Of a stretch of 64,000 nt of DNA, positions 35,016-57,959 are shown piece after piece. The first letter of the stretch is position 1. Each line of letters opens with the position of its first letter. A program made the translations under genes and the position numbers. Below the pieces are notes generated by a model. The model did no database searches and was not told where the DNA came from. It was given only the letters and a program-made list of their open reading frames with translations. Source of the DNA: Candidatus Firestoneibacteriota bacterium (GTDB taxonomy: Bacteria > Oederibacteriota > D2-FULL-39-29 > JBBTED01); contig JBBTED010000018.1 in assembly GCA_038042445.1 (NCBI GenBank), forward strand, positions 24,081 through 88,080, given 5' to 3'.

Positions 35016-35031
35016 TGGCACGAAAATTGCA
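35016..35031 (+). promoter_or_regulatory. Sigma54 (-24/-12) promoter, TGGCACGaaaaTTGCA.
   Basis: It matches the consensus TGGCACG-N4-TTGCW perfectly. It lies upstream of the OMP/giant-adhesin genes. Confidence 0.7.
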
Positions 35032-36457: not shown

Positions 36458-36501
36458 ATAACAGGTTAGCGGTTCTAAAAATATCCAATGTTATTGTAGC
36501 C

Positions 36502-36564
36502 GCAGAGCGAAGCTCTGCTAAAAAAGTAGTTGCAAGGTTAAAGACAGCAAAGCTTACGCTTTGC
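36502..36564 (+). promoter_or_regulatory. Two intercistronic hairpins, GCAGAGC-GAA-GCTCTGC and GCAAAGC-TTAC-GCTTTGC, between the OMP gene and the giant-protein gene.
   Basis: Both have perfect 7-bp stems. They lie upstream of the probable start of the giant CDS at 36589. Confidence 0.4.
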
Positions 36565-36588
36565 AGCTACATAAATCATATCAAATAT

Positions 36589-39500
36589 ATGAGTTTGTTG
36601 AATTTTAGAATGGTTAATCTATTACCTATTGCTTTTATTTTACTATTAACGGGCCAGGTTTTTGCAACAAGCAGAACAATGAGCGGTACCGTATACACGG
36701 ATGAGGGAGTGACTAATATTGGTTCTGGCAAAAATATGGCAATATCAGTTAATGGTGGTGTTGCAACTACTTTTGTAACAGGAGCAAATGGTGTTTATTC
36801 AGTAGCTGTAAATGTTACTACTAATGACAAAATATGTGTTTACTTAGATAATGAAACAGAAAAAGCTACTTTAGTTACTATAATTCTTGATGCTGACTTA
36901 AGTGGATTTAATTTGTACCAAAATCATTTAATTTTGCGTAAAGAAACAGGTGGTGCTGGAATTAACAATACTGATTTATCAGGTGCAGATAATGGTGATG
37001 CTGATATTCTTTATAATGTAAGTGGAGCTAATTTAACTGTTAATGCAGGAGTTGAATTGTATGTTTGGACAGGACATACTTATGCGTCTGATGGTAATAT
37101 TAATGCTGATGCAATAAAAATTAACGGGATTTTTACTAATACGACTGCAGGTTCAATAATTACTTGTGATGATGCAGGAAGTATTACTGTGAATGGAACT
37201 TGGACATTAACTGGAGGTGTAGGCAATTTAATTTCTTTAAAGTCTGATTTAGCAGGAAGTCAGTTTGATGTAATTAATAACGGTACAGTAAATTTGAGTT
37301 ATGTTGATTTAAAAGATTGTAATGCTTCTTCTTCGATTATTGTGACTGATGGAAATGATAGTGGAAATAACACATACGTTATTTTTCAGCCTGCTGTATA
37401 TGATGGTGCAGTGTTAACAGGAGATGGTGCTGGAAGTAATTCAGTATCTATTGATTCAATAAGTGGTGTTACAACAGGTGTTCAGATACTTTGCTTTAAA
37501 ATCAGTAATCCTGCGAGTACGGGAAATCAGGCAATAAAAATAGATCAGTTCACAATACATTTAGATGGCTCAAGTACAGCAGTAATTACTAATATTGCAG
37601 AAATTGCATTATCAGGTGCAGTAACTTCAACAGTTACTACTCCTGTTTCTAATGATATTACCTTTGGGACTCCTAATGTAGGTTTTGATGGTGGCATATT
37701 GAGTGTTTCTAATAATACTACTTCTTCTGATATTGTTGTGAAAATTAAATTAAAAACTACTTTAACTGCTACAGAAACTCAATTCTGGAAATTCAATGTT
37801 GATGATGATGATGTTTCAGAGTCAAATTTGACATCAGATATGATGGGTACAACTGGAGTAGATATAGCTGGTTCAAGTTGTGCATTATCAATTGTTGCTA
37901 CGAAGTTAGTATGGACAACGCTTCCTGCAGACACCAGAATAGTAGACGTAAGTGATGAAGTAGTGAGTGGGTTAGTATGGCAGACACAGCCTGTAGTAAA
38001 GGCAGTGGATGCAAATAATAATGTAGATATAGATTCAGTAGAAACAGTAACATTAAGTTTGGTAGGTGGAGCAGGAACATTTGCTGGAACATTAACAGAA
38101 GGATGTGTAAGTGGAGTGGCAAATTTTGTTGGTAATGGAATAAAGTATACAGTAAGTGGAAATAATGATGGTGAAGGATTTGTCCTAAGAGCAAGTGGAG
38201 GTGCATTAACAACAGCAGATACAAGTGGATTATCAGCAGATGTAGTAGCAACGAAATTAGTATGGACTACAGTTCCAGCAGATAGCAGGAGAGTAGATGT
38301 AAGTGATGAAGTAGTAAGTGGATTAGCATTTGAGACACAGCCAGTAGTAAAGCCAGAGGATGATGATAATAAAGTAGATGCAGATTCAACGCAAATAGTA
38401 ACATTAAGTTTAATAAGTGGAGTAGGAACATTTGCAGGAACATTAACTAAAGCTTGTGTTCTTGGGGAAGCAAATTTCAGTAGCAATGGAGTAAAGTATA
38501 CAGTATCAGGTAATAATGAGGGGGAAACATTTGCAATAAGAGCAAGTGGAGGTAGTTTAACAGCAGCAGATACTGGTTTATTATCATCAGATATAGTAGC
38601 AAGTCAGTTGGTGTGGACACAATCAGCAAGTCATAGTGGAGTACCGAATGGAGACATAATAAGTGGAGTAGTATTTAATACACAGCCAAAAGTGGAGACA
38701 AGAGATGCAGATAATAAGTTGGATACTGATTATGTGAGTTCAGTAGTTTTAAGTGAGACAGGTGCTGGTTTTTTAAGTGGCACAACATCAGTAGCAGCAG
38801 TAAGTGGAGTGGTAACATATACTGGGATAGCATATAATGTGAATGCGGACCAGGAGAGTTTCACATTAAAAGCGGACAGTGGAAGTTTAACACAAGGGTC
38901 AGATACAAGTAAGGTGGCAGATGTAGTAGCAACGAAATTATCTTTTACTGTCCAGCCACAAGAGACAGGGCAAGCAGCAAATACAATAGTATCAGGTAAT
39001 GTATTTGACACACAGTCTCAAGTAGAAGCAAGGAATAATAGTGATAAAAAGGATGTAAATTTTATAGATACAGTTACAGTAGTTGAAACAGGAACAGGTA
39101 GTTTAAGTGGAACAAGTTCAGTAGCAGCAGTGGCAGGTGTAGTAACATTCACTAATTTAGTATATACAGCGGTTGTAGACAATGAGATGTTTAAGTTAAG
39201 TGCAGATGATACTCCTGGAGGGCAGGAAGGAAATTTAACCGGAACATTTGAGTCTGCGAATACAACAGCGAATGTCCTTGCAACAAAATTAGTGTTTGAT
39301 GTCCAACCTTCATCAAGTGTAGTTATGAATATTGATGTGGTAATTCATCCTGTCCTTAAAGCTTTAGATGCAAATAATACAATAGATGTTAATAATACTG
39401 ATACACTTACGATTAGTGCAGTATTATCAGCAGATTTGTCACCTGCCCCAGGAATTCTTACCATAACACCTTCTTCTGGTAGTAATATGATAAGTGGTAG

Positions 39501-42387
39501 TTGGACATCTACACTATTAAGACATAATACTCCAAATTTAATTAAGATAAAAGTTATTGGAAGTACTGTAGTTGGGCCTTATTATTCTAATGATATAAAT
39601 GTACTTTTAGATACAACTTTACCATCTTCAATTATGGATCTTAGTGCTTCTACAGGAGCTCTTGAAGGAGAAATAAATCTAACATGGACAGCACCAGGTG
39701 ATGAGGGAAATAGTGGGACGGTTACAGGTTATCTTGTCCGATATTCAACAAGTCCGATAAATAATCAAACTGATTTTGATAATGCCACTACTTATACACA
39801 AAGTTGGTCACCTTTATCGTATGGTAATACTGAAAATCAAACTATTACTATGCCAGTAAATGGTGTTACTTATTATATTGCTATTAAAGGTTTTGATGAG
39901 GTGCCGAATTATGCTCCATCATTTAATACTACAGGCAATAGTGCAGTATCACAAATAGATAGTGTGGCACCGTCTAACATAACTAATTTAGTTGTTACTA
40001 CAGGTGCTTTGAAGAGTCAGCTTAATCTAAACTGGACATCTGTTGGTGATAATGGAAATAGCGGGACAGCAACAAGTTATATTGTCCGATATTCTACTGC
40101 TCCTATTCTAAATCAGAATGATTTTAATAATGCATCAATTTATGTTCAAAGTTGGACTCCTTTAGCAACAGGAAATGCTGAAAGTAAAGTTATTTCTGGG
40201 CTTCAATCAGGTGTTCTTTATTATGTTGCTATTGAAGCAAAAGATGAGGCTGGAAATCAAGCAGGTCTTTCTAATACAGCCAATGCTAATGCTACGACTC
40301 AGATTGATGTGGCACCACCTGCTGCTATTATAAATTTAGCTGCAACTACTGGTTTGCAACATACTCAGATAAATTTAACATGGACAGCTACAGGTGATGA
40401 CCAGGATGTAGGAACAGCATCAAGATATATTGTCCGATATTCAACAAGTGCGATAAGTAATCAAACAGATTTTAATAATGCTAATACTTATGTGCAGAAT
40501 TGGGTTCCATTATCAGCAGGTAATCTAGAAACCAAGATACTTGCAGGATTAACAGCTGGTGTTACTTACTATATTGCTATTGAAGCAGTAGATATCGAAA
40601 GTAAGCAGGGAGCTATTTCAAATACTACAGGTAATAGTGCAGTTGCTAAAAATGATATTACTGTTCCTAGCAATATTGGTGATTTAGTAGCTACTACTGG
40701 TTCAATTGAGGGAGAAATTAATTTGACATGGACGGCATCAGGTGATGATGGAAATATTGGGACAGCTACGGGATATATTGTCCGATATTCAACAAGTGCG
40801 ATAAGTAATCAAACAGATTTTAATAATGCTAATACTTATGTTCAGAGTTGGGTTCCTTTATCAGCAGGTAATGTGGAAACCAAGACACTTACAGGATTAA
40901 CACCTGGTGTTACTTACTATATTGCAATTGAAACAATAGACGAAAAACCAAATCAAGCAATTGATTTTAATAAAACTGGAAATAGTGCAATGGCTCAATT
41001 GGATGTTACCAAACCGTCTGCTATTACAAATTTATCTACTTTTATTAGTGAAAATGATGAAAAAGGAGCAATTCATCTGACATGGACAGCATCAGGTGAT
41101 GATGGAAATATTGGCACAGCTACAGGATATCTTGTTCGATATTCAACAATCGCGATAACTAATCAAACAGATTTTGATAATGCAACTACTTATCAAAATA
41201 CTTGGGTTTCTTTGCCTACAGGTCAGAAAGAAGAAAAAACTATAACTGGTTTTTTGCCGGGTGTCCAGTATTACATTGCTATTGAATCAGTAGATGATAG
41301 AGGGAATACATCTGATTTATCTAATATTGCTGAAGGGACTCCACGAATTGATTTGATTCCACCATTAGAGCCAATAGGTATAAAATGTGATTTTAATGCT
41401 TCTGGTTATTTTGTTATTAACTGGAAAGCACCAAATAGAAATGAAGATGATAGTGTTCTAAATGATTTATCTGAATATCATATTTACCGTACGGCTAATA
41501 TTGATGGTGAATATGTATTGAAAAGTTCTGTATCTAAAGATACATTGAATTGGGTAGATATGGAAGTAACAACTACTACATCTGAAACATATTATTATAT
41601 CATAAAGGCAGTAGATTATTTCGGTAATGAGAGTAAATTATCAATGCAAATAAGTAATATAAATAAAGAAATTAGTATTGCTTTTAATGATGAAATTACT
41701 TTAAAATTACCTATAGAGATGAACAAATTGATTTATGGAGAATCTAATAAATATAAAGAAGACATTCGTTTTCAGTTAAAAAAGAAAATTGATGATGGAA
41801 AAAGAGTTTTAGGTAGTTATGAAATAAAAGCGATAAAGGAAAAAAATGGTGCAGAAATTAATAATTTCACTTTTGACAAACCAATTGAAATTGCTTTTAA
41901 ATATAGAAATAATAGTAGAGCACAAATGTTCAAAGCTTCTTTTATTCAAGAGGACTTTAAACCTACGGTTTTTGTGCATAATGGAGTTGAGTGGGTGAAA
42001 TTAGGTGGAAAAGTGGATAATAATTTAGAAAAAGTTGTTATAAAAACATCTAAGTTAGGAAATTTTATGCTTAAAGCTTCTGCTTCTTTAACTGAATTTA
42101 CTATTGTTCAGATTACTCCTTCTAAAATATTTACACCAAATGGAGATGGACAGTGGGATGTAATTGAGTTCTACTTTGAAAATCCACGTGATACTTATGT
42201 TAATTCAACAAAAATTTTTGATATTACCGGAGCTGAAGTTTGCGATATGCAATTAAGCAGTACAGGTAATTCTTATGTTTGGGATGGAAAAAATAGAAAT
42301 GGAGAAATTGTTTCTAATGGAGTTTATATTTACCAGATAGAAGTTGAAGGTAAAGTTTTAAATGGCACTATAATAGTAGCAAAGTGA
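36589..42387 (+). CDS. Giant secreted surface/adhesin-like protein of about 1930 aa. In order it has a signal peptide, a G/N/T-rich beta-helix-like N-terminal region, Ig-like repeats, about 7 FN3-like ~116-aa repeats, and a C-terminal T9SS type-B-like (gliding motility-associated) sorting domain.
   Basis: The signal peptide is MSLLNFRMVNLLPIAFILLLTGQVFA. The FN3-like repeats read LTWTA.GDDGN.GTATGY.VRYSTS.I.NQTDFNNA. The C-terminus FTPNGDGQWD...WDGKNRNGEIVSNGVYIYQIEV resembles the FxPNGDGxND...WDG...GVY.Y type-B CTD signature. Confidence 0.7.
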   Translation: MSLLNFRMVNLLPIAFILLLTGQVFATSRTMSGTVYTDEGVTNIGSGKNMAISVNGGVATTFVTGANGVYSVAVNVTTNDKICVYLDNETEKATLVTIILDADLSGFNLYQNHLILRKETGGAGINNTDLSGADNGDADILYNVSGANLTVNAGVELYVWTGHTYASDGNINADAIKINGIFTNTTAGSIITCDDAGSITVNGTWTLTGGVGNLISLKSDLAGSQFDVINNGTVNLSYVDLKDCNASSSIIVTDGNDSGNNTYVIFQPAVYDGAVLTGDGAGSNSVSIDSISGVTTGVQILCFKISNPASTGNQAIKIDQFTIHLDGSSTAVITNIAEIALSGAVTSTVTTPVSNDITFGTPNVGFDGGILSVSNNTTSSDIVVKIKLKTTLTATETQFWKFNVDDDDVSESNLTSDMMGTTGVDIAGSSCALSIVATKLVWTTLPADTRIVDVSDEVVSGLVWQTQPVVKAVDANNNVDIDSVETVTLSLVGGAGTFAGTLTEGCVSGVANFVGNGIKYTVSGNNDGEGFVLRASGGALTTADTSGLSADVVATKLVWTTVPADSRRVDVSDEVVSGLAFETQPVVKPEDDDNKVDADSTQIVTLSLISGVGTFAGTLTKACVLGEANFSSNGVKYTVSGNNEGETFAIRASGGSLTAADTGLLSSDIVASQLVWTQSASHSGVPNGDIISGVVFNTQPKVETRDADNKLDTDYVSSVVLSETGAGFLSGTTSVAAVSGVVTYTGIAYNVNADQESFTLKADSGSLTQGSDTSKVADVVATKLSFTVQPQETGQAANTIVSGNVFDTQSQVEARNNSDKKDVNFIDTVTVVETGTGSLSGTSSVAAVAGVVTFTNLVYTAVVDNEMFKLSADDTPGGQEGNLTGTFESANTTANVLATKLVFDVQPSSSVVMNIDVVIHPVLKALDANNTIDVNNTDTLTISAVLSADLSPAPGILTITPSSGSNMISGSWTSTLLRHNTPNLIKIKVIGSTVVGPYYSNDINVLLDTTLPSSIMDLSASTGALEGEINLTWTAPGDEGNSGTVTGYLVRYSTSPINNQTDFDNATTYTQSWSPLSYGNTENQTITMPVNGVTYYIAIKGFDEVPNYAPSFNTTGNSAVSQIDSVAPSNITNLVVTTGALKSQLNLNWTSVGDNGNSGTATSYIVRYSTAPILNQNDFNNASIYVQSWTPLATGNAESKVISGLQSGVLYYVAIEAKDEAGNQAGLSNTANANATTQIDVAPPAAIINLAATTGLQHTQINLTWTATGDDQDVGTASRYIVRYSTSAISNQTDFNNANTYVQNWVPLSAGNLETKILAGLTAGVTYYIAIEAVDIESKQGAISNTTGNSAVAKNDITVPSNIGDLVATTGSIEGEINLTWTASGDDGNIGTATGYIVRYSTSAISNQTDFNNANTYVQSWVPLSAGNVETKTLTGLTPGVTYYIAIETIDEKPNQAIDFNKTGNSAMAQLDVTKPSAITNLSTFISENDEKGAIHLTWTASGDDGNIGTATGYLVRYSTIAITNQTDFDNATTYQNTWVSLPTGQKEEKTITGFLPGVQYYIAIESVDDRGNTSDLSNIAEGTPRIDLIPPLEPIGIKCDFNASGYFVINWKAPNRNEDDSVLNDLSEYHIYRTANIDGEYVLKSSVSKDTLNWVDMEVTTTTSETYYYIIKAVDYFGNESKLSMQISNINKEISIAFNDEITLKLPIEMNKLIYGESNKYKEDIRFQLKKKIDDGKRVLGSYEIKAIKEKNGAEINNFTFDKPIEIAFKYRNNSRAQMFKASFIQEDFKPTVFVHNGVEWVKLGGKVDNNLEKVVIKTSKLGNFMLKASASLTEFTIVQITPSKIFTPNGDGQWDVIEFYFENPRDTYVNSTKIFDITGAEVCDMQLSSTGNSYVWDGKNRNGEIVSNGVYIYQIEVEGKVLNGTIIVAK

Positions 42388-42400: not shown

Positions 42401-42515
42401 TTCCGCATGTAGTAAGCGGGAATCCAGTGTCTTTTATTGGTAGTAGTACGCTTAGGCGGACGAAGTATGTAGTTGCCGATTTATCGGCATATTGTTTTAG
42501 GAGGGGGATTTTAAA

Positions 42516-44396
42516 ATGTCTGATTTTAAATGGAAGTTTTCTGAACATCTGAAATTTGTGCCAAGATTATCAGGTGTAGAAAAAAACAAGATGGAAAAGA
42601 CTACTGATATACAAAATACGATTAAACAATTGAGATTGAGTGAATTGCAAATGTTATATATAGAAAAAGTAGAGGAATCACGCAAGTTAATGGATAAAAC
42701 AGAAGACTTAGTTAAGTTGATAGAAGAAAAAAATAATAACTGGAATGACAAATTAGAATCATTAAGACAAAAAGAAAGTGAAATAAGTTCTTTGTCTGAA
42801 AGGTTAGAAACAAAAGAGAAAATTGCAGATAAATTTGTTGATGAGGTGAAATCTAAAAAAGATAAATTGGAGATAAATGCAGAAGAAATAAATAGATATA
42901 ATAAAGAATTAGTATCGTTACTGGTAGAATTAAAAGGGAAACAGTATAGTAAAGAATTTGAGCAAATAGATAAACTTAATAAAGAATTGCGTCTATTAGC
43001 TGAGGAAAGAGATATAGCAGTTACGAGATGCGAAGAAAAAACACAGGAAGTTGAACGTGTTAGATGGGAGTTGCAGTCTTTAGCTATACAGTTTGAAGAG
43101 AGGGAGAAGAATTGGAATGAGAAAATTAAGATGTATGAGCCTGATAAGGAAAAGTTAGAGAAGCAGAATGCAGATAAAGGACAGCAGATAGATAGATTAA
43201 AAAAAGAATTGCAGGCATTGATAGAGGAGAGAAATATACTAAATACCAATTACGAAGAAAAAATACAGGAAGTTAAACGGCTTAAAGATGAGTTGCATTT
43301 TTTAAACATACGGTTTGAAGAGAAAGAGAATAATTGGAGTGAGAATATTAAGTTATTTAGGCAGGAGCAGGTAGAATTAAACAGGCAGAATGCAGATAAA
43401 GGACAACAAATAGATAGATTTAATAAAAAATTACAGGCATTAGCAGAAGAGAAAAATACAGTAAGTACGAAATATGAAGAAAAAGTAAAAGAAATAGATA
43501 GATTAAATAGTGAATTCAAAAAAACACTTGAAAGATTTAGGGAAAATGAAAAAGTAGGAGAAAAAAATAGTGAAGAGTTAAGGGATAAGAAAAGGGAATT
43601 AACATTAAAGGAACAAGAAATAAATCAACTTAAAGAAAAATTAAAGATATTAGAGGGAAAGAAAGATGTGGATGGGAAAATAAATGATACAAACGTTCAA
43701 GAAAAAACTAAACAAATTGAAGAAATGTTAAAAGTGGAAAGAGTAGTTATGAAAGAATTAATTTTTGGTGTTGTTCACCAAATACGTAATCCATTGGGAA
43801 TAATTAGTACAAATACTCAATTCCTTTTGAAAAAGAAAAAATATAAAAAGGGTGAAGACAAATTATTGCAAGTGATTTTTAATACTGTTGAAAGTTTTAA
43901 TAGGAAAATTGATATATTTCTTGAACTTGCCAATCCAATAGAATTGTTTACACAGGTTGTTTCTTTAAGTAAGGTTTTAGATGGGATTTTTTCAATTGTT
44001 GAAGAAAAATGTAAAATGCAAAATATTAAGTTAATAAAAGGTTATCCTGCAGACTTACCTAAAGCAGAGGTTGACGCTAATAAATTGAGTCAGGCATTGC
44101 TTAATATTTTCTCCAATTCTTTGTTTGCTACTCCTGAGGGAGGTACTATTGAAGTAAATACACATTTGGATTTTGGAAAAAAAGAAGTTGCGATTAGATT
44201 TGTAGATAATGGTAGTGGAATTTCTCAAGTGTATATTGATCAAGTAGGGATACCATTTTTTACCACAAAGAAAGACGCATTAGGATTGGGAATTTTTTCT
44301 GCAAAACGTATTATAATTTCTCATAAAGGGCATATTAAAATCGATACCAATTCTGACAAAGGAATAACTGTAACTGTATTTTTGCCATATTGTTAA
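42516..44396 (+). CDS. Cytoplasmic histidine kinase with an N-terminal coiled coil (~400 aa, internally repetitive).
   Basis: It has no TM segments. The H-box is VVHQIRNPLGIIS. The HATPase_c region has DNGSGI...GLGLGI. Confidence 0.75.
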   Translation: MSDFKWKFSEHLKFVPRLSGVEKNKMEKTTDIQNTIKQLRLSELQMLYIEKVEESRKLMDKTEDLVKLIEEKNNNWNDKLESLRQKESEISSLSERLETKEKIADKFVDEVKSKKDKLEINAEEINRYNKELVSLLVELKGKQYSKEFEQIDKLNKELRLLAEERDIAVTRCEEKTQEVERVRWELQSLAIQFEEREKNWNEKIKMYEPDKEKLEKQNADKGQQIDRLKKELQALIEERNILNTNYEEKIQEVKRLKDELHFLNIRFEEKENNWSENIKLFRQEQVELNRQNADKGQQIDRFNKKLQALAEEKNTVSTKYEEKVKEIDRLNSEFKKTLERFRENEKVGEKNSEELRDKKRELTLKEQEINQLKEKLKILEGKKDVDGKINDTNVQEKTKQIEEMLKVERVVMKELIFGVVHQIRNPLGIISTNTQFLLKKKKYKKGEDKLLQVIFNTVESFNRKIDIFLELANPIELFTQVVSLSKVLDGIFSIVEEKCKMQNIKLIKGYPADLPKAEVDANKLSQALLNIFSNSLFATPEGGTIEVNTHLDFGKKEVAIRFVDNGSGISQVYIDQVGIPFFTTKKDALGLGIFSAKRIIISHKGHIKIDTNSDKGITVTVFLPYC

Positions 44397-44443
44397 ATAA
44401 TTTATTTCTTCCCCTGATAAGGGGGAGATAGAGGGGGTTATAA

Positions 44444-45667
44444 ATGTATAATATTCTTATTATAGATGATGAACAGGAGATGATTGATGCACTTAGAAAT
44501 ATTTTAGAGCAAGATGGATATACTGTTACTGCTACAACTGATGGTGTAAGTGCATTAAAAAAAGTAGAAAACAATAATTTTGATGTTGTTTTATTAGATG
44601 TTCGCATTCCTGGTATGGATGGTATTCAGATTTTAGAACAGATTAAAAAAACAAATAAAAATCTTCCTGTTATTATGGTTACAGGCTATGGAGATACAAA
44701 AACTTCAGTACAGGCAATGAAATTAGGAGCATTTGATTATATTTCTAAGCCTTTTAATTATGAAGAATTAATTAATCTTATTGAGAAAGCTGTTCAAATG
44801 AATAAATTAGAAGGGAAATCTGGAATATATGAAAACCAATTGACAAGGAAACCTGAAGGGGCTCGGGCAATTGAAAAGGAGAAAGAGAAAAAAATAGCTC
44901 AAGAAAGTGTGCCTTATATCAAACATAATCGAATCCAGTTGAAAGTAGTATTTGCAATTTGTTTGAGCGTAATAATTTTATCACTTGGTATTTTTTATTA
45001 TTTGCAAATTTTTTCCGGCAAAACACAAATCTATTTGACTACTTGTACTAATCCTTCTGCTATAACATGTGACAAAGAATATCTTTGGATAAATGACTGG
45101 GTTACAAATATAATATATAAACATAAACTAGTTAAACAGCTTCCTGTTGTAAAAAAATATAGCTTTAACAATTTACACCTAACAGGCATAGCATTAGCAG
45201 GGAATATGATTTTTACATGCGATATTGAAAATAAGAAAATTTATAAGCATAATATTGATGATAACCTGACAATTATTGATACTTATCCTAGCCCTGGTAT
45301 TAGTCCATCAGGTATTTTCTGGGATGGGAAATATCTTTGGTCATGCGATGCTGAAAGTGATAAGATATACAAACAATATTTTGACGGTAAAAATCTTGTT
45401 GTTATTGAAACATATCCAAGTCCTTCAACACATCCTATAGGTGTTGCTTATTATAAAGAATATTTATGGTCTGCTGATGCTGATACAAATAAGATATATA
45501 AACATGAATTAGATAAAACTCTTTCAGTTGTAGACACGTATTATATACCTAAAGAAGAGGCATCTATTTCCAGTTTTACATTAATAGACGGTAAAATATG
45601 GGTTGTTACTGAAGACAATAATAAAGTATTTTCATATAGTTTATCACATATTATGAAGAATAAATAA
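44444..45667 (+). CDS. Response-regulator receiver domain fused to a single TM helix and an extracytoplasmic domain of about five ~47-aa beta-propeller-like repeats.
   Basis: The REC domain has DVVLLDVRIPGMDG. The TM is VVFAICLSVIILSLGIFYYL. The repeats have the form ...GI.WDGKYLW..D....KIYKH. Confidence 0.65.
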   Translation: MYNILIIDDEQEMIDALRNILEQDGYTVTATTDGVSALKKVENNNFDVVLLDVRIPGMDGIQILEQIKKTNKNLPVIMVTGYGDTKTSVQAMKLGAFDYISKPFNYEELINLIEKAVQMNKLEGKSGIYENQLTRKPEGARAIEKEKEKKIAQESVPYIKHNRIQLKVVFAICLSVIILSLGIFYYLQIFSGKTQIYLTTCTNPSAITCDKEYLWINDWVTNIIYKHKLVKQLPVVKKYSFNNLHLTGIALAGNMIFTCDIENKKIYKHNIDDNLTIIDTYPSPGISPSGIFWDGKYLWSCDAESDKIYKQYFDGKNLVVIETYPSPSTHPIGVAYYKEYLWSADADTNKIYKHELDKTLSVVDTYYIPKEEASISSFTLIDGKIWVVTEDNNKVFSYSLSHIMKNK

Positions 45668-45709
45668 AGGAGAATCTGTCATTGCGAGAAAGATAGAAGG
45701 GAGAATATA

Positions 45710-47191
45710 ATGATCCAGTGTCCAAAATGCAAAACAGAAAATAATGACATAGCCAAATTTTGCCAAAACTGTGGAAGAAAGCTAGGACATTCTTCATCAG
45801 GGGTTTTCTTAAAAACAGTTATTGCGATAATATTGGTTTTGGCTATAGGATTTGGGGCGTACTATTTTAATGCGTCTAAAACTTTGCCCAGTCGTGCTGA
45901 TTTAATGATTAAATCAACGGAAAAAAAATCAAAAGAAATAGAAATAATTGGGATAAAGGAGGTTTTTCAGGAACAATTTAATGAGGGAAATAAATTGTTG
46001 CGGGAAGCTAAGGAATTATATTATGCCGGTAAATATACAAAGGTATTGAAAACAGCAAAAAGAGCTAATGAAGTTATTGATAAAGTAAAATTAGGAATAA
46101 GAGATTTTGTTGATATTGAATATGGGCGATTATTTGTGGAAGGAGAAGAACAGATACAAAGTGGTAACTACGAAAAAGCACTTGAATGTTTTGAGAAAGC
46201 TATGGAATGTAGGAAAGGCGATATTCCATCTACAGGAAAAATAGAGCATTGTAAAAATAATCTTTATGAAATGTATTTTAAAAAAGGGCAGGAATATGTT
46301 CCGAATTTATTATGGGATGAGGCAATAAATGCGTATCAAATAGCGCTGAAATATAAACCTGATGACAAACAAGCAGAGGATGAATTAAAAATTGTGCAAG
46401 CAAAGAAGGAAGAAGCATATAAAATAGAGGAAGCAAAAGCAAAGGCAATAGCAGCAGCAGAGAAGAAGAAATATGAAAATATGGTATACATACCAGCAGG
46501 AGAATTTGAAATGGGAAGCAATGATTGTGTTGATGAGAAACCAGTTCATAGAGTATATCTTGACGGATACTATATAGACAAATACAAAGTAACGAATGAG
46601 CAATATGCGAAATTTTTGAATGAATGGGGAAAGACAATAGACAGGAATGGCAATGAAATGATTGACATAGAAAATAGCGCAATATCAAACGAAGGAGAAA
46701 AATTTGTTATTCAATCTGGCTATGAGAAATACCCTGTTATATATATAAGTTGGTATGGAGCCAATCAATATGCGAAGTGGTGTGGTAAAAGATTACCAAC
46801 AGAAGCAGAATGGGAGAAGGCATGTAGTGCTGGAAGTAAAACAAAATATTGTTTTGGGGATGATGAAAATAAACTTGGTGAATATGCATGGTATAAAGAT
46901 AATTCAGATGGACGGACACATCCAGTAGGAAAGAAGAAACCAAACAAATGGGGATTATATGATATGCATGGTAATGTATGGGAATGGTGTTCTGATTGGT
47001 ATGATGAAAAATATTATGAAAAGAGCCCTAAGGATAATCCTAAAGGATCTAACACGGGGACTAGTAAAGTTCTTCGTGGTGGTACGTGGGATTTCATTGC
47101 TAATGATTGTCGGTCATCTTATCGCGGCAGCGGCACGCTGGTCAGCTGGGGCGATCTTGTAGGTTTCCGTTGCGTGCGAGTAGCGAAATAA
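45710..47191 (+). CDS. Membrane-anchored protein with an N-terminal zinc ribbon, a TM helix, TPR/coiled-coil regions, and a C-terminal FGE-sulfatase (SUMF1-like) domain.
   Basis: It has CPKCKTEN...CQNCG, then a TM, then the FGE-domain blocks GSNDCVDEKPVHRVYLDGYYIDKYKVTN, HGNVWEWCSDWY and RGGTWDF...GFRCV. Only one Cys is present where the canonical FGE has a Cys pair. Confidence 0.7.
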   Translation: MIQCPKCKTENNDIAKFCQNCGRKLGHSSSGVFLKTVIAIILVLAIGFGAYYFNASKTLPSRADLMIKSTEKKSKEIEIIGIKEVFQEQFNEGNKLLREAKELYYAGKYTKVLKTAKRANEVIDKVKLGIRDFVDIEYGRLFVEGEEQIQSGNYEKALECFEKAMECRKGDIPSTGKIEHCKNNLYEMYFKKGQEYVPNLLWDEAINAYQIALKYKPDDKQAEDELKIVQAKKEEAYKIEEAKAKAIAAAEKKKYENMVYIPAGEFEMGSNDCVDEKPVHRVYLDGYYIDKYKVTNEQYAKFLNEWGKTIDRNGNEMIDIENSAISNEGEKFVIQSGYEKYPVIYISWYGANQYAKWCGKRLPTEAEWEKACSAGSKTKYCFGDDENKLGEYAWYKDNSDGRTHPVGKKKPNKWGLYDMHGNVWEWCSDWYDEKYYEKSPKDNPKGSNTGTSKVLRGGTWDFIANDCRSSYRGSGTLVSWGDLVGFRCVRVAK

Positions 47192-47267
47192 AATCTACTT
47201 TACATAAAATCATTATAAGTGCTATAATTCCTATTATTTTATTAATGTATTTAATAATTAAAAAATT

Positions 47268-48267: not shown

Positions 48268-48343
48268 GGGGCTGTAGCGTAGTTGGGAGCGCGTCTCCTC
48301 GGCAGGGAGAAGGTCACGGGTTCAAATCCCGTCAGCTCCACCA
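48268..48343 (+). tRNA. tRNA-Ala (anticodon GGC).
   Basis: The sequence folds into a cloverleaf by hand. It has a G3:U70 pair, A73 and an encoded CCA. The anticodon loop is TCGGCAG, with an unusual C33. Confidence 0.7.
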
Positions 48344-48363
48344 AAAACAATCAAAATTTTTAT

Positions 48364-49317
48364 ATGGACTTATTTGTTTCAATCATTATACCTTTTAAAA
48401 AATTCAATTCTTTTGTAGAAGAATGTGTTCAATATTGCAATAGTCTTGATTATTCTAATTACGAAGTGATTCTTCTGCCAGATGAAGATGAAAAGAAACA
48501 ATTCCCGAAAGTAATAATTCATCCTACAGGTGATATAGGTCCTTCTGAAAAGCGAAATATTGGTATGAAAATTGCAAAAGGCGAAATTCTTGCTATGCTT
48601 GATGATGATGCTTATCCTGTATCTCAATGGTTAAAAAAAGCAGTGCAAAATTTTGCTGATCCTGAAGTTGCTGCTGTTGGGGGTCCTGCAGTTACACCTG
48701 ATTCAGATGATTTTATGCAAAAAGCGAGTGGTTTAGTTTATTCATCAATTATGGCAAGTGGTGAGTATACATATCGTTATTTGCCAAAAGCAAGAAGGGA
48801 AGTTGATGATTATCCAACTTGTAATTTAATAATTAGACGTTCAGTTCTTGAAGAAATAGGTGGTTTTGATAAGAAATACTGGCCAGGTGAAGATACAATA
48901 ATATGTTTAAAAATTACAAAGGAATTACACAAGAAAATAATATATGACCCGAAAGTTTTTGTTTATCATCACAGAAGAAGATTGTTTTTATCCCATTTAA
49001 AACAAGTTGCAAGTTATGCCCAGCATAGAGGAAATTTTGTTAAGAAGTTCCCAGAAACATCAGCAAAATTATCATATTTCATTCCATCGTTTTTTGTTTT
49101 ATGGCTTATAATAGGTTTTATATTATCAGTATTTGTTTCCCAAATAACAATAGTTTATCAAATAATTTTAGCTGTATATCTATTATTGCTTTTATTTTTT
49201 ACCAGCTTTACTAATCTGAGGTTGTATCTAATTACTATGCTTGGTATATATATAACTCATTTTACTTATGGAGTTTATTTTCTTATAGGCTTATTTACAA
49301 GAGAGCTTAAAAGATGA
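48364..49317 (+). CDS. Family 2 glycosyltransferase with C-terminal TM helices.
   Basis: The start was placed at MDLFVSIIIPF, after the tRNA. There is a DDD(AYP) DxD-like motif and two or three C-terminal TMs. Confidence 0.7.
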   Translation: MDLFVSIIIPFKKFNSFVEECVQYCNSLDYSNYEVILLPDEDEKKQFPKVIIHPTGDIGPSEKRNIGMKIAKGEILAMLDDDAYPVSQWLKKAVQNFADPEVAAVGGPAVTPDSDDFMQKASGLVYSSIMASGEYTYRYLPKARREVDDYPTCNLIIRRSVLEEIGGFDKKYWPGEDTIICLKITKELHKKIIYDPKVFVYHHRRRLFLSHLKQVASYAQHRGNFVKKFPETSAKLSYFIPSFFVLWLIIGFILSVFVSQITIVYQIILAVYLLLLLFFTSFTNLRLYLITMLGIYITHFTYGVYFLIGLFTRELKR

Positions 49318-49324: not shown

Positions 49325-50026
49325 TTATTTTGTAGCAGTATGGATTGAAATTGAACCAAAAAGTAGTGGGTAATGTTTTACATCTTTAAAACCAAATGAG
49401 AGTAATATATTCTTAAGTTCTAATGGGGTGTGAAAATCTATTATAGAATTTGACAAATATTTATAAGCTTGTTTATTCCCGGAAATAAAATAGCCAAACC
49501 AAAATATAAACCATTTACTATATAAATGAAAAAATTTTCTTATTATTTTGTTTTTAGGTTGACTTGACTCTACTATAACAAATTTACCATTATAAGACAG
49601 AACCCTGAATATTTCTTTTAAATAAATTGCTATTAATGGATTTTTATATGTTATATTTCTAAAAGCAAAAGATATGCCAATACAATCAAAGTATTCGTTA
49701 GAAAACGGTAATTTTGAAGCATCTTCCTTAATAAATGAAATAATTTTTGAATTATTAGTTTTTTGTTTTGCTACATCTAGCATTTGAGCACTGTAATCCA
49801 AACCAATAATCCTTGTGTTTTTATCTGCTAATTTTGCTATATTAATTGCTAAATCACCTGTTCCACAACAAATATCCAAGACTGTTTTTGGTGATATACT
49901 AAAGCACTCTTTTGCTGCTTTAAATCGCCATTTGTTATCCAATCCTAAAGTTATAACTTTATTTATAAAATCATATTTGTTTGTTACAGATGTAAATATA
50001 TTATATAGAAAATTTGATTTTATCAT
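49325..50026 (-). CDS. Class I SAM-dependent methyltransferase of the UbiE/MenG family.
   Basis: It has VLDICCGTGDLA, plus post-I and motif II blocks. It is 233 aa long. Confidence 0.7.
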   Translation of the reverse strand: MIKSNFLYNIFTSVTNKYDFINKVITLGLDNKWRFKAAKECFSISPKTVLDICCGTGDLAINIAKLADKNTRIIGLDYSAQMLDVAKQKTNNSKIISFIKEDASKLPFSNEYFDCIGISFAFRNITYKNPLIAIYLKEIFRVLSYNGKFVIVESSQPKNKIIRKFFHLYSKWFIFWFGYFISGNKQAYKYLSNSIIDFHTPLELKNILLSFGFKDVKHYPLLFGSISIHTATK

Positions 50027-50033
50027 TATATTT

Positions 50034-50294
50034 GATTGGGGGGGTAGATGAGGGAACTTTTTCTCCTTCGCTCGTTTCTCTTGCTCCTCCGAAACCTGCC
50101 ACCCTTACTTTATCCTCGCTATCGCTTGGCGTTCGGGTTGGCTTCAAGTCCCTTTTATATTTGATTTGGGGTGGATGAGGGGACTTTTTCTCCTCCGTTC
50201 GCTTTGCTCACTCTTCCGAAACCTGCCACTCCTCACTTTTTCCTCGCTTTGCTCGGCGTTCGGAGTTGGCTTCAAGTCCCTTTTATATTTGATT
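50034..50294. repeat. Two tandem copies (the first degenerate) of a ~129-bp unit. Each copy begins with a 20-nt duplicate of the tRNA-His 3' end (TGGGGTGGATGAGGGGACTT on the + strand).
   Basis: The unit GGCTTCAAGTCCCTTTTATATTTGATTTGGGGTGGATGAGGGGACT recurs at about 50141 and 50270, with a degenerate copy at about 50034. The third occurrence is the tRNA-His gene itself. Confidence 0.7.
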
Positions 50295-50372
50295 TGGGGT
50301 GGATGAGGGGACTTGAACCCCCAGCCTCACGGGCCACAGCCATGCGCTCTAACCAGTTGAGCTACATCCACC
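50295..50372 (-). tRNA. tRNA-His (anticodon GTG) with an encoded G-1.
   Basis: The cloverleaf was folded by hand. The anticodon loop is CTGTGGC. The extra 5' G pairs with C73. Confidence 0.8.
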
Positions 50373-50383
50373 ATTTTACTTCA

Positions 50384-50460
50384 TGGTGCGCCCGAGAGGA
50401 TTCGAACCTCCGGCCAATTGATTAGAAATCAATTGCTCTATCCAACTGAGCTACGGGCGC
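50384..50460 (-). tRNA. tRNA-Arg (anticodon TCT).
   Basis: The cloverleaf was folded by hand. The acceptor stem is GCGCCCG/CGGGCGC. The anticodon loop is TTTCTAA. Confidence 0.8.
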
Positions 50461-50479
50461 ATATTTAAAATTTTAAGAT

Positions 50480-50557
50480 TGGTCGGGGCGCTCGGATTTG
50501 AACCGAGGGCCTCCTGCTCCCAAAGCAGGCGCGCTAAGCCAGCTGCGCCACGCCCCG
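50480..50557 (-). tRNA. tRNA-Pro (anticodon TGG).
   Basis: The cloverleaf was folded by hand. The acceptor stem is CGGGGCG/CGCCCCG. The anticodon loop is TTTGGGA. Confidence 0.8.
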
Positions 50558-50770
50558 ATTGTAAATTTAGATTCTACCCAAAAAAAAGTTTAAAGTCAAA
50601 ATATTTTTATGACAAATATTTTTTAAAACTAAATTTAAAAGATGCATTTATTCTAATAAAAATGTTATAATGACATAATTTTTTACTAATTTGGTAATCT
50701 TTCCGTATAAGGAAGTAAAACAAAATTATAGTATTCATTCTACGAATGATGAAAGGAAGGAAAGTAATTT

Positions 50771-52627
50771 ATGAAAAGGGATAACATAAGAAATGTTGCG
50801 ATAATCGCGCACGTGGATCATGGCAAGACAACATTGGTTGATGCAATGTTAAAACAGACACACTCAGTAAAGATTGGCGTAGCGTCTACAGATTTGATTA
50901 TGGACAGTATGGATCTTGAGCGGGAACGGGGTATTACGATTAAAGCAAAAAACGCTTCGTTAATGTATAAAGGAATTAAGATTAATATTGTTGATACTCC
51001 TGGGCATGCTGATTTTGGTGGCGAAGTGGAACGTACATTAAGAATGGCTGATGGAGTGTTGTTATTGATAGATGCAAAAGAAGGTCCTATGCCGCAGACC
51101 AAGTTCGTTCTAAAAAAAGCAATGGAACTTGCACTCAAAGCTATAGTTGTGATTAATAAAATTGACAAACCTAATGCGCGAGTAGATGAGTCTGTAAATA
51201 AAACCTTTGATCTTTTCGTAAAATTGAATGCGAATCATCTTCAGCTAGATTTTCCTATCATTTACGCTTCTGGTATTCGAGGACTGGCATCGAAATCTGC
51301 AGAGGATCTTCTTGCTAAGCTTGCAAACAGTGATACTCCTCCAGATATTTTCCCTTTATTTGAAACTATCATAAATAGCATACCTGCACCTGAAGTTGAA
51401 ATAAACGATTCTTTTACTATGCAGGTATTGGCTTTGGCTTACAATAATTACAAAGGACGAATGGGTATAGGAAAAGTGAAATTTGGGAAAATAAAAATTA
51501 ACCAGAATATGATGTTAATAAAACCAGACAATAGCAGGACAACTGATCAGATTAAAAGTTTGCAGATGTATGAAGGTTTAAATCAGGTGGATGTTGAGGA
51601 AGCCGAGGCCGGTGATATAGTGGCAATTGGCGGATTTTCGGATGTTCACATTGGAGATGTTATAACAGATCCTATAAATCCCAAAATTCTTCCTGCTGTA
51701 CAAATTGAACCGCCAACTATAAAGATGACTTTTGGCGTTAATACTGCACCTGGTTCTGGCAAGGAAGGTAAATTTGTGACTTCGCGAAATCTGCGTGATC
51801 GTTTAATCAAAGAACTTGAAACTAACGTGGCTTTGAAGGTTGAAGGATTAGATCAAGGGACTGATACTTTTTTAGTTTCCGGAAGAGGTGAGCTTCATTT
51901 GGCAGTATTAATAGAAACTATGAGAAGAGAAGATTTTGTATTGCAAGTCGGACAGCCAAAAGTTATTTTTCATGAAGAAAATGGCGTAAAGCTTGAACCT
52001 TACGAAAATCTTTTTATTGATGTACCTCGCGAACATCAGGGAACTGTCATTGAAGAACTTGGGAAACGCGGCGGTGAGATACTGCATATGGACGCAACTA
52101 TTGGTGGTGATATCCATGCCGAATATTTGATTCCTACACGCGGATTGCTTGGTTTGAAAAACCTACTGATGAATCGCACGCGAGGAACTGTTGTAATAAA
52201 CAACCTATTTGATTCATATAAACCTGTGCATGATATTGATCTGCGTGATAACGAACATGGCTCCCTTATAGCTAGCGAACCGGGAATATCTAATGCATAT
52301 GGATTGAATAATGCTCAAGAACGAGGTGCTTTATTTATAAATCCTAGTGTTGAAGTTTACGAAGGTATGGTAGTAGGCAGACATAACATTGAAAGTGATC
52401 TTGAGATAAACGTATGCAAAGGTAAAAAACAATCTAATATGAGAGCTTCTGGTACTGACGAGGCTATCGTTCTTACTCCTCCTGTTGATGTGACTCTGGA
52501 TTTTGCCCTGGAATACGTAGGCGCTGATGAATTGGTGGACGTAACACCGAAAAACATTCGTATTCGCAAGCAAGTTTTAACCTCAGTGAATAGAAAAAGG
52601 CAAAGAAGAAACGAGAAGGAGCGATAA
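50771..52627 (+). CDS. typA: Translational GTPase TypA/BipA.
   Basis: It has AIIAHVDHGKTTLVD, DTPGHADF and NKID, and is 618 aa long. Confidence 0.9.
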   Translation: MKRDNIRNVAIIAHVDHGKTTLVDAMLKQTHSVKIGVASTDLIMDSMDLERERGITIKAKNASLMYKGIKINIVDTPGHADFGGEVERTLRMADGVLLLIDAKEGPMPQTKFVLKKAMELALKAIVVINKIDKPNARVDESVNKTFDLFVKLNANHLQLDFPIIYASGIRGLASKSAEDLLAKLANSDTPPDIFPLFETIINSIPAPEVEINDSFTMQVLALAYNNYKGRMGIGKVKFGKIKINQNMMLIKPDNSRTTDQIKSLQMYEGLNQVDVEEAEAGDIVAIGGFSDVHIGDVITDPINPKILPAVQIEPPTIKMTFGVNTAPGSGKEGKFVTSRNLRDRLIKELETNVALKVEGLDQGTDTFLVSGRGELHLAVLIETMRREDFVLQVGQPKVIFHEENGVKLEPYENLFIDVPREHQGTVIEELGKRGGEILHMDATIGGDIHAEYLIPTRGLLGLKNLLMNRTRGTVVINNLFDSYKPVHDIDLRDNEHGSLIASEPGISNAYGLNNAQERGALFINPSVEVYEGMVVGRHNIESDLEINVCKGKKQSNMRASGTDEAIVLTPPVDVTLDFALEYVGADELVDVTPKNIRIRKQVLTSVNRKRQRRNEKER

Positions 52628-52770
52628 AAAAGTACAGCTAAAAACTTTACTGATGTGGTGCGATGTGGTGCGAATAAGCTTGTATTTTGACTTACCTTTA
52701 AGATATAATAAACTTTAATATGAATCATATTCAGAATGCAAATAAAATGACTAAAGGAGATGGTGTAATT

Positions 52771-53985
52771 ATGAATTCAACACAAAATAATTTTTCTGGG
52801 CTTGGTATAGCTCCGGGATTTTTTGAAGTACTCGAAAGATTAAAATTTCACGTACCAACTCCAATTCAGCATAAGGTTATACCTATAGCAATTGAGGGTA
52901 AGGATATTATTGGGGTTGCTCAGACTGGTACAGGTAAGACTCTTGCTTTTGGTATTCCAATGATTCAACGTCTTACTCAGAAAAAAGGTAAAGGTTTGGT
53001 TCTTGTTCCTACGAGGGAACTTGCCATTCAGGTAAACGAGGCTATTATAAAGTTTGCTTTGGCATTTAAGATGAGAACATCTGTGCTTATTGGTGGGGAT
53101 TCTATGTACACACAAACTAAGTCTTTGAGAAATGAACCACGTATTATTGTTGCAACTCCTGGGCGTCTTATTGATCATATTACTCGTCGTAATGTACGTC
53201 TTGATAATGTAGGCATTCTTGTTCTTGATGAAGCAGATCGTATGCTTGATATGGGCTTTGCTCCACAAATAGAACGTATCTTGAAGCTTGTTCCAAGAGA
53301 TCGCCAGACCATGCTTTTTTCAGCTACAATACCAACCAGTATAGTTAATATAGCAGCTACATATATGCAGTTGCCTGTACGTACTGAGATCGCACCTTCC
53401 GGGACAGCAGCTGAACTTGTTTCTCAGGAGATGTTTATTGTAAGTAAGGAATTGAAAAGCAAGCTTCTTGGAGAATTGCTTAAACAATATACAGGTTCTG
53501 TGCTTTTGTTTATGCGAACAAAAATAGCAGCGCAGAAAATTACACGTACTTTGCGAACAATGGGATATGCTGCAGCTGAAATTCATTCAGATAGAAGTTT
53601 GGGGCAACGTAAGGAAGCATTGCAAGGTTTTAAATCTGGTAAATATCGTATTCTTGCTGCAACTGATATTGCATCGCGAGGTATTGATGTGATAGGAATT
53701 GAATTAGTTGTAAATTATGATTTACCTGATGATCCAGAAAATTATGTTCATAGAATAGGTCGTACTGGAAGGGCTGGAATAAAAGGTCATGCTATTACTT
53801 TTGCAACTCCAGACCAAGGCGGAGATGTGCGAAATATAGAAAGAATTATTAGAACATCAATTCCTTTGTCTAAACATCCGGAAATTCCTGTAGAACGTTT
53901 TTCAGCCATAACTAAGACATTTGCATGGAAACATAAAACTTATCGAGGTAAACGAAACAGTTTTCATAGCCGTTTCAAAAGATAA
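52771..53985 (+). CDS. DEAD-box ATP-dependent RNA helicase.
   Basis: It has the Q-motif, AQTGTGKT, DEAD (VLDEADRML), SAT and HRIGRTGR. The start was placed after the strong SD AAAGGAG. Confidence 0.85.
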   Translation: MNSTQNNFSGLGIAPGFFEVLERLKFHVPTPIQHKVIPIAIEGKDIIGVAQTGTGKTLAFGIPMIQRLTQKKGKGLVLVPTRELAIQVNEAIIKFALAFKMRTSVLIGGDSMYTQTKSLRNEPRIIVATPGRLIDHITRRNVRLDNVGILVLDEADRMLDMGFAPQIERILKLVPRDRQTMLFSATIPTSIVNIAATYMQLPVRTEIAPSGTAAELVSQEMFIVSKELKSKLLGELLKQYTGSVLLFMRTKIAAQKITRTLRTMGYAAAEIHSDRSLGQRKEALQGFKSGKYRILAATDIASRGIDVIGIELVVNYDLPDDPENYVHRIGRTGRAGIKGHAITFATPDQGGDVRNIERIIRTSIPLSKHPEIPVERFSAITKTFAWKHKTYRGKRNSFHSRFKR

Positions 53986-55516: not shown

Positions 55517-55636
55517 ATTTATTTATTTTTTAATCATTCAAACAAATATTTTATCAAGTTCTAACTCTCTAGACAACAAAAAACACAAAAATTTAAAAAT
55601 GGGTCAGTCTTGTGTTTTTTTTGTTATATCGCGTAG

Positions 55637-55691
55637 GGGCGGATTTATCCGCCCAATAATTAAGGGCTGGCAAGTCAGTTCCTACTGACTT
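55637..55691. repeat. Two tandem GC-rich hairpins, GGGCGGAT-TT-ATCCGCCC and AAGTCAG-N6-CTGACTT, in the divergent intergenic region.
   Basis: Both are perfect palindromes in otherwise AT-rich DNA. They sit between divergently transcribed genes. Confidence 0.5.
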
Positions 55692-55765
55692 ATTCCAATA
55701 GCAATGCGAATAATCTTGAATTAAAATTTATATTCAAGGTATAATAAAGATTGGGGTGATAAAAA

Positions 55766-56512: not shown

Positions 56513-56513
56513 A

Positions 56514-57692: not shown

Positions 57693-57734
57693 CGCAATGT
57701 GATTTTATTTATATAATTAAAATTGAGGTGATAA

Positions 57735-57959
<225 letters not shown>

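Follow-up and report, generated by a model that had tools for sequence, protein, structure and literature searches.

The 64-kb stretch of DNA analysed here (the window) belongs to a metagenome-assembled genome (MAG) of Candidatus Firestonebacteria from Hainich groundwater, and our subject is a two-component pair encoded in it together with the envelope genes around the pair. The original prediction, made from the letters of the window, described an unusual three-gene signalling module at 42516-47191, which was made up of a coiled-coil histidine kinase, a response regulator whose receiver (REC) is joined through a transmembrane (TM) helix to extracytoplasmic repeats, and a protein combining a Zn ribbon, a TM segment, TPRs and an FGE-type domain. 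Three open reading frames (ORFs) were indeed found on the same strand at 42516-44396 (626 aa), 44444-45667 (407 aa) and 45710-47191 (493 aa), and every motif quoted for them is present in the window proteins. Comparison with related loci showed that the conserved unit is a cassette of four genes, encoding a giant protein, a barrel protein, the kinase and the propeller protein.

The kinase gene (42516-44396, + strand) encodes an N-terminal coiled coil (aa 1-405, 42516-43730), a DHp domain with H421 (43731-43955) and a CA domain (44058-44393). The HisKA match at residues 414-472 scores 26.3 bits, slightly under the Pfam cut-off of 26.9, and HATPase_c at 520-624 (PF02518) reaches 57 bits against a cut-off of 26.4. 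The H-box HQIRNPL with H421, the G1 box DNGSGI at 564 and the F-box FFTTK at 581 are all intact. The best NCBIfam matches are AtoS and ZraS, the AtoS profile aligning to residues 363-608 with E 2e-46. It was confirmed that the kinase lacks membrane segments, with zero hydrophobic segments in its sequence, and the proposed ~400 aa of coiled coil correspond to an N-terminal region of ~405 aa rich in E, K and L. The 60-aa repeat assigned to this region had to be corrected to a period of 74 aa (222 nt), present in ~2.5-3 copies at 42961-43498 (+ strand), with NADKGQQIDR at residues 218 and 292. Kinases encoded beside related propeller genes are 228-1186 aa long, all of them soluble and none with a TM segment or known sensor domain. 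Their sole difference is the length of the coiled coil, which ranges up to ~950 aa and is missing altogether (0 aa) from two, bare DHp-CA cores of 228-231 aa. The coiled coil of the window kinase resembles that of its closest relative only.

The regulator gene (44444-45667, + strand) encodes in order a receiver (44444-44803), a K/E-rich flexible linker (44804-44929), a TM helix (44930-45013) and the repeat domain (45026-45664). The receiver matches PF00072 at residues 4-113 with 125.7 bits (E 1e-36), its best NCBIfam matches are AtoC and NtrX, and D8, D9, the acceptor D52, T80 and K102 are all in place. In the AlphaFold2 model of the full regulator (24-sequence alignment; pLDDT 88, ~96 over the receiver), the receiver is followed by an extended alpha-5 helix, a linker at 128-162, a TM helix at 163-190 and an all-beta domain. 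Modelled alone from 31 sequences, the C-terminal domain forms a five-bladed, four-stranded propeller (pLDDT 95, pTM 0.91) of five repeats of ~42-47 aa each, with the conserved blade motif DG..LWS.D....IYKH. The receiver is necessarily cytoplasmic because its kinase is soluble, and the single TM segment is preceded by basic residues, consistent with an N-in orientation; it follows that the propeller should be periplasmic. The predicted order of receiver, one TM helix and extracytoplasmic repeats thus stood, with the repeats now modelled as a propeller behind the helix.

Foldseek comparison of the propeller with the PDB gave type I glutaminyl cyclases as best matches (3mbr, 2iwa, 3nol and 3nok; TM-score 0.76-0.78, the upper value to 3mbr and 3nol; E ~1e-10 to 2e-11), which are likewise five-bladed propellers (PMC7948796) and share the four-stranded blades of the window domain at 10-13% sequence identity. 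Later matches were designed Pizza propellers, virginiamycin B lyase and WD40 proteins. A PDB profile search with the full-length regulator alignment was dominated by receiver domains and was uninformative on the propeller. No curated Pfam or NCBIfam family spans the domain; the blade sequences score weakly as SGL, Vgb_lyase, DUF6923 or NHL type, and PF05096 (Glu_cyclase_2) is matched by neither the window propeller nor its close relatives, even at E<=1. In the source databases, the REC-TM-propeller relatives are named just 'response regulator' or 'CheY-like'.

An exhaustive search of 1.84 billion representatives yielded 3820 relatives of the blade family, and the REC-TM-propeller architecture was observed in ~50 sequence clusters among the best ~177 of these. 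The homologues are mostly REC-TM-propeller proteins of ~385-420 aa from Elusimicrobiota and Firestonebacteria. To survey gene neighbourhoods, the window proteins were used as tblastn queries against 27 related loci, mostly from Elusimicrobiota, with some from Firestonebacteria and one from Ignavibacteria; further related loci were located from an alignment of 6 propeller sequences. A kinase core lies directly 5' of the propeller gene in 17 of the 27 loci, 16 with a REC-propeller protein and one (L043) in which TPRs replace the receiver. Homologues of the C-terminal region of the giant protein were found upstream of the propeller gene in 14 loci, and the barrel homologue, or its LysM tail, in 15. 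Most of the loci that lack partners are contigs ending just upstream of the propeller gene. An FGE-domain gene was found within ~10 kb of the propeller gene in none of the 27. This holds also for the closest relative, another Firestonebacteria MAG whose regulator is 48% identical and is followed by acpP-fabF. Of the proposed three-gene module, therefore, the kinase and REC-TM-propeller pair is conserved, in 17 loci, and the FGE member is not; when synteny in related genomes is used as the check, the third gene fails it, and the conserved partners sit upstream of the three genes first considered. The intact motifs and the conserved adjacency point to a genuine cognate two-component pair in which phosphotransfer from kinase to receiver is predicted. 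In one Elusimicrobiota locus (L029, 8245-10645), two tandem REC-TM-propeller genes follow one kinase.

Two genes upstream of the kinase complete the cassette. The first (35045-36457, + strand, from the ATG at 35045) encodes a PorV/PorQ-like outer-membrane beta-barrel (aa ~1-315) followed by a coiled coil and a C-terminal LysM domain. It was matched by the NCBIfam model PorV_fam (NF033709) with E 6e-18 over profile positions 8-326 of 326, its LysM domain was recognised with E 2e-3, and its N-terminus is signal-peptide-like. The same pattern of barrel, coiled coil and LysM was found in the homologues of loci L009 and L011. PorP/SprF models gave E ~0.03 at best with the barrel protein and its homologues, and that for one homologue only. 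The second gene (36454-42387, + strand) encodes a giant secreted surface protein of 1977 aa, rich in fn3 domains (Pfam 1e-21), with a conserved C-terminal region (aa ~1600-1977) that ends in a CHU_C / FlgD_ig-like sorting domain (42121-42384). The last ~80 aa score 29.5-35.4 bits with CHU_C, against a Pfam cut-off of 27, and 22.8 bits with TIGR04131, against an NCBIfam cut-off of 35. Over the C-terminal ~390 aa, identity to the proteins encoded upstream of the propeller gene in the 14 related loci is 30-45%, and no significant PDB sequence match was found for this C-terminus. In three Elusimicrobia loci (L021, 5613-5966; L023, 2760; L025, 5577), the giant and barrel genes are separated by an ORF of ~95-118 aa that resembles only part of these ~390 aa (35-42% identity). 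Antisense ORFs of up to 250 aa on the - strand, at 37779-39011 and 42497-43519, overlap the giant gene and the coiled-coil region of the kinase gene; they most likely arise as artefacts of coding sequence that is repetitive and biased in composition.

The natural variants of the propeller protein are instructive. Its cytoplasmic end is an intact receiver in the majority of relatives, a degenerate receiver in P0021 and P0022 (E 3e-12 against the receiver profile in hhalign), and a coiled coil alone in P0020 and P0023. P0025 has the architecture TPR-TM-propeller, and its locus (L043) retains the giant, barrel and kinase genes. P0016 is an anchor-only propeller of 255 aa, encoded at a locus (L042) with the giant gene directly upstream and no kinase. 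A class of ~690 aa joins a coiled coil, a probable pseudo-receiver (hhalign E 1e-4, probability 54%), a TM segment and the propeller; in two loci (L033 and L035) the giant and PorV-LysM genes are followed by such a protein of 693-697 aa and there is no kinase. Pfam gave no match on the N-termini of this class, the pseudo-receiver and kinase-like coiled coil being seen only by pairwise profile and BLAST comparison. In all four variant loci examined (L033, L035, L042 and L043), the giant gene adjoins the propeller gene. Across these varied cytoplasmic ends the propeller stays constant as an intrinsically periplasmic component of the cassette, for which phosphorylation would be an optional regulatory layer. 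Moreover, composition-corrected blastp links the L009 kinase to the ~690-aa class: its N-terminal coiled coil aligns with the N-terminal end of 11 members at E 4e-11 to 1e-6, which provides fusion evidence for physical cooperation of kinase and propeller protein.

The FGE-domain protein (45710-47191, + strand) requires separate treatment. Its Zn ribbon (residues 4-25, 45710-45790), one TM segment (~33-54, 45806-45871), TPRs (~142-222, ~45992-46384) and FGE-sulfatase-fold domain (256-490, 46475-47179) are as proposed, the last matching PF03781 with 213 bits (E 6e-63) and the structures 6muj/2q17 with E 1e-37. It had been stated that one of the two catalytic cysteines is kept. The HMMER alignment to the Streptomyces FGE of these structures revealed that 3 residues are deleted where the first catalytic Cys should stand and that Ala takes the place of the second, and Cys467 of NDCRSS aligns with the Tyr of RYR; neither cysteine is thus retained in register. 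With both gone, the suggested non-FGE role gains in firmness, and the domain is predicted to be non-catalytic, as in PorK, PvdO or TvpA. No sulfatase is found among the annotated genes ~10 kb to each side. PorK/GldK, PvdO, TvpA of T. denticola and kinase-fused FGE domains are alike in the FGE fold, the lost catalytic cysteines, the periplasmic site and the fusion to other modules; compared with PorK/GldK, EgtB and PvdO, the window protein scores far under their equivalog cut-offs. The domain is highly promiscuous: at E<1e-10 it has at least 7943 relatives, and the modules to which it is joined include CsgG, caspase, kinase and PEGA. The complete Zn-ribbon-TM-TPR-FGE architecture is rare, shared by a few full-length relatives; TPR-FGE relatives of the same architecture adjoin Ser/Thr kinase genes and one adjoins a bAvd gene. 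The FGE-fold protein therefore looks like a lineage-specific addition at the 3' end of the operon, outside the conserved cassette, its gene probably being co-transcribed with the cassette in this genome. The bAvd-adjacent paralogue in a related MAG, and TvpA among the PDB matches, prompted the idea that the FGE gene is the target of a diversity-generating retroelement; it was dropped for the window, as these 64 kb hold no template-repeat copy of the FGE 3' end. In that Firestonebacteria MAG (GCA_043822305.1, L014, 1-4808), two FGE paralogues, 84-89% identical, flank bAvd and Ser/Thr kinase genes, an arrangement that could be a diversity-generating retroelement aimed at FGE-fold proteins.

Transcription of the cassette appears to be under its own, separate control, as judged from a sigma-54 site and an adjacent NtrC-type regulator. 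The promoter-like site TGGCACGAAAATTGCA, with a perfect -24/-12 consensus, lies at 35016-35031 (+ strand) in the intergenic region directly after the activator gene, 14 nt before the ATG at 35045. Two perfect matches occur in the 64 kb, and with one mismatch allowed there are 7 against 1.7 expected. We infer that TGGCACGAAAATTGCA acts as the sigma-54 promoter of the cassette, in which case the transcript would be near-leaderless; since the listed TTG start at 35015 overlaps the site, the ATG at 35045 is the likelier start of the barrel gene. The NtrC-type sigma-54-dependent regulator (33234-34844, + strand; REC-AAA+-HTH_8, with Pfam Sigma54_activat 2e-68, Response_reg 1e-30 and HTH_8 3e-21) is the candidate transcriptional activator. 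The REC-GAF-HisKA-HATPase hybrid kinase encoded just before it (31589-33226, + strand; Pfam HATPase_c 9e-24, GAF 5e-15, HisKA 5e-9 and REC 6e-6), outside the conserved cassette, is its likely partner. Sigma-54-like sites were found among the related loci in the three Elusimicrobia L021, L023 and L025 only, in L023 and L025 before the short ORF; this is suggestive, the sites being too few to call conserved. A cassette with its own transcriptional regulator fits a non-transcriptional role of the coiled-coil kinase and the membrane-bound receiver.

Hairpins had been claimed in all the short spacers. In the 47-nt kinase-regulator spacer the claim is convincing: a hairpin with a 9-bp stem and GAUA loop (44407-44428, + strand) lies immediately ahead of GAGGGGG, the Shine-Dalgarno-like motif of the regulator gene, and the spacer folds at -16.9 kcal/mol (z -1.8; equally good folds in 12 of 200 shuffles). 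The 42-nt regulator-FGE spacer folds weakly, at -5.1 kcal/mol, and 26 of 200 shuffles were as good, so that this part of the claim lapses. The 128-nt spacer after the giant gene contains a terminator-like hairpin, TGCCGATTTATCGGCA, with a T-rich tail (42474-42489, + strand; consensus match), a possible attenuator that would lower expression of the downstream signalling genes.

By the textbook account, response regulators are cytoplasmic effectors. The window pair resembles the NtrB/AtoS-NtrC systems with HisKA kinases in the H-box of its DHp domain, its CA domain, the acceptor residues of its receiver and its adjacent, co-oriented genes. It differs in that the kinase has just a repetitive coiled coil in place of sensor and TM segments, and the regulator has no AAA+ or DNA-binding output, its receiver being tethered via one TM helix to a periplasmic propeller. 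[quoted passage not shown] Shared with this complex are a giant protein, its CHU_C tail being a sorting domain of T9SS type-B-like kind, encoded beside a barrel protein, and the set of periplasmic propeller, TPR and peptidoglycan-binding modules. The window barrel, however, is PorV/PorQ-like rather than PorP/SprF-like; it is a LysM domain on the barrel protein, in place of the OmpA_C domain of PorE, that would bind peptidoglycan; and the propeller has an inner-membrane anchor and is joined to a receiver, in hosts that are Firestonebacteria and Elusimicrobiota.

Taken together, these results suggest that the pair, the upstream barrel-LysM protein and the giant CHU_C protein form an envelope cassette in which a phosphorylation switch acts inside-out on the display or anchoring of the adhesin, a reading that we hold with moderate confidence. 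The cassette probably governs the cell surface rather than gene expression; among the related loci examined, no DNA-binding or other cytoplasmic output is kept within it. In the proposed mechanism, the coiled-coil kinase would phosphorylate the membrane-tethered receiver, phosphorylation would alter the oligomeric state or availability of the propeller, and the propeller would bind or handle, on the periplasmic side, the C-terminal region of the giant protein or the barrel-LysM anchor; in this way the cell would control from within whether the adhesin is displayed, anchored or released. The sigma-54 promoter and the NtrC-type regulator would set transcription separately, and the FGE-fold protein would be a binding protein of the periplasm, peculiar to the lineage and added to the operon of this genome.

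A similar logic is known from LapD, an inner-membrane protein in inside-out control of a giant adhesin (PMC3032545, PMC3032553). In LapD-LapG-LapA a cytoplasmic domain reads an intracellular signal and a periplasmic domain governs retention of the adhesin, as proposed here; the comparison is by analogy only, as the input in the cassette would be aspartyl phosphorylation and not cyclic di-GMP, the periplasmic part is a propeller and not the LapD output domain, and no GGDEF/EAL domain or LapG-like protease is encoded in the cassette. In PorX-PorY/PorA (PMC12152298), a two-component system also serves secretion and surface display, with the C-terminal domain of the cargo sensed in the periplasm. 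In that system the role of membrane sensor falls to the kinase, and a REC-PglZ protein acts as its cytoplasmic regulator, which is the inverse of the window arrangement.

Several observations weigh against the phospho-switch reading. The functional links among the cassette members rest on gene neighbourhood and domain logic. The barrel protein scores 65 bits with PorV_fam, under the NCBI cut-off of 90. T9SS core families were absent from the Pfam scan results of 26 window proteins, a scan at which no PorKLMN, Sov or PorU models were aimed and which left the ORFs at 17953-23076 and 49325-63625 outside. The kinase of L043 is kept despite the replacement of the receiver by TPRs in the propeller protein. 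The linker between receiver and TM helix spans ~40 residues, has pLDDT <50 at 128-162 and varies in length among relatives; a linker this long, variable and disordered makes rigid coupling across the membrane unlikely in either direction and leaves mechanisms of oligomerisation or tethering. Finally, the cassettes with a bare-core kinase contain no component that could provide a cytoplasmic input, which favours the propeller as the sensor.

This last point leads to the opposite direction of signalling, which we regard as rather unlikely and still the most serious competitor. In such an outside-in scheme, the periplasmic propeller would sense the C-terminal domain of the giant protein, its secretion or anchoring state or an external ligand, and ligand-induced clustering would alter how the receiver takes phosphate from the kinase or regulates it allosterically; the kinase would relay to a regulator encoded elsewhere, with the membrane receiver serving as a regulated phosphate sink or kinase modulator. 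Propeller sensor domains are known in kinases such as PknD. The propeller is the sole extracytoplasmic domain of a pair whose kinase has neither sensor nor TM segment, kinase and receiver are of the NtrB/AtoS-NtrC type, and an NtrC-type regulator is encoded nearby in the window. A precedent also exists, as the C-terminal domain of the T9SS cargo PorA is a periplasmic ligand of the PorY kinase (PMC12152298). Nevertheless, the related cassettes share no regulator that could give a cytoplasmic output, a REC-GAF kinase is already encoded beside the sigma-54 regulator as its own, and the anchor-only and pseudo-receiver propeller proteins found in the same cassette cannot signal by phosphorylation.

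It is improbable, to a clearly greater degree, that the cassette is primarily a structural tether across the envelope, running from coiled coil through membrane protein, propeller, LysM-bound peptidoglycan and barrel to the giant adhesin and serving adhesion or surface motility, with kinase-receiver docking merely a regulated joint that attaches the coiled coil. The kinase-less fusions of L033 and L035, which place coiled coil, pseudo-receiver, TM segment and propeller in one polypeptide, speak for such a tether, and the homology of the L009 kinase coiled coil to this class, the wide range of coiled-coil lengths among the kinases and the periplasmic coiled coil and LysM of the barrel protein itself agree with it. 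Against this, the kinases of two loci lack a coiled coil altogether, that of the window kinase is matched in its closest relative only, and there is no sign of a cytoskeletal or motor partner.

We give little credence to the original triad, in which the kinase, the REC-TM-propeller protein and the Zn-ribbon-TM-TPR-FGE protein would act as one module with the FGE fold as a periplasmic ligand-binding co-receptor. The three genes do share one orientation and follow each other at 47 and 42 nt without an intervening terminator, both membrane proteins present domains to the periplasm, the FGE domain has lost both catalytic cysteines, and the FGE-fold protein PorK is a partner of PorP in the T9SS. 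As a conserved module, however, the triad appears largely refuted by the absence of an FGE gene beside the pair in all 27 related loci, the closest Firestonebacteria genome included, by the high promiscuity of the domain and by the Ser/Thr kinase and bAvd neighbours of its same-architecture relatives. Least credible of all is a propeller enzyme, namely a membrane-anchored, phosphorylation-regulated protein akin to type I glutaminyl cyclases that modifies exported proteins: the best structural matches and a Glu_cyclase_2 match in the distant relative P0035 speak for it, but identity to the cyclases is only 10-13%, the window protein and its close relatives do not match Glu_cyclase_2 and have blades weakly of SGL, NHL or Vgb_lyase type, the conserved residues are those of the repeated structural blade motif, and the two neighbouring exported proteins are predicted to begin, once mature, with Asp and Thr instead of Gln.

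Some further features of the window were noted. A strong sigma-70-like promoter for the gene after the FGE gene was recognised at 47199-47228. Beyond it, a GT2 glycosyltransferase ORF (48283-49317, TTG at 48283) overlaps tRNA-Ala(GGC) at 48268-48343; the gene call on the identical public contig begins ~80 nt further in (317 aa), which indicates that the true GT2 start lies downstream of the tRNA. Three tRNA genes, His-GTG, Arg-TCT and Pro-TGG, lie on the - strand at 50295-50557. At the other end of the window, 167-6698 holds four tandem paralogues that are 59-76% identical, ~450-580 aa long, with ~6-9 predicted TM segments and no Pfam match. They lie in a stretch of lower GC content (1-18 kb, with 25-28%; most of the remaining sequence has 30-37%) and are followed by two B12-radical-SAM genes, a methyltransferase gene and a gene for a DUF2079 membrane protein. 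This region may be a glycan or lipid modification island.

What appears new in the cassette is a two-component system with extracytoplasmic output and a sensor-less kinase inside a T9SS-like cargo-anchoring gene set. In the literature searched, no description of a receiver-TM-periplasmic-propeller regulator or of this cassette was found; searches on membrane-bound or transmembrane response regulators returned nothing relevant, the sole mention being a membrane-anchored archaeal output domain, MetOD3. In its boldest form, which we advance as a tentative possibility, the inside-out reading describes a trans-envelope apparatus of Elusimicrobiota and Firestonebacteria in which the kinase signals to the tethered receiver, the propeller engages the barrel-LysM anchor and the C-terminus of the giant adhesin, and phosphorylation of the receiver Asp drives display. 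If true, LapD-type signalling would gain its first two-component counterpart, and a T9SS-like module for cargo anchoring would exist beyond the Fibrobacterota-Chlorobiota-Bacteroidota (FCB) group. Two-component signalling would then reach as far as the cell envelope, controlling or monitoring it directly and post-translationally. The natural variants, with their anchor-only propeller, pseudo-receiver fusion and TPR fusion, offer a ready-made dissection of the system, and the cassette gives a testable handle on the display of giant adhesins with T9SS-like sorting domains in the poorly known Elusimicrobiota and Firestonebacteria.

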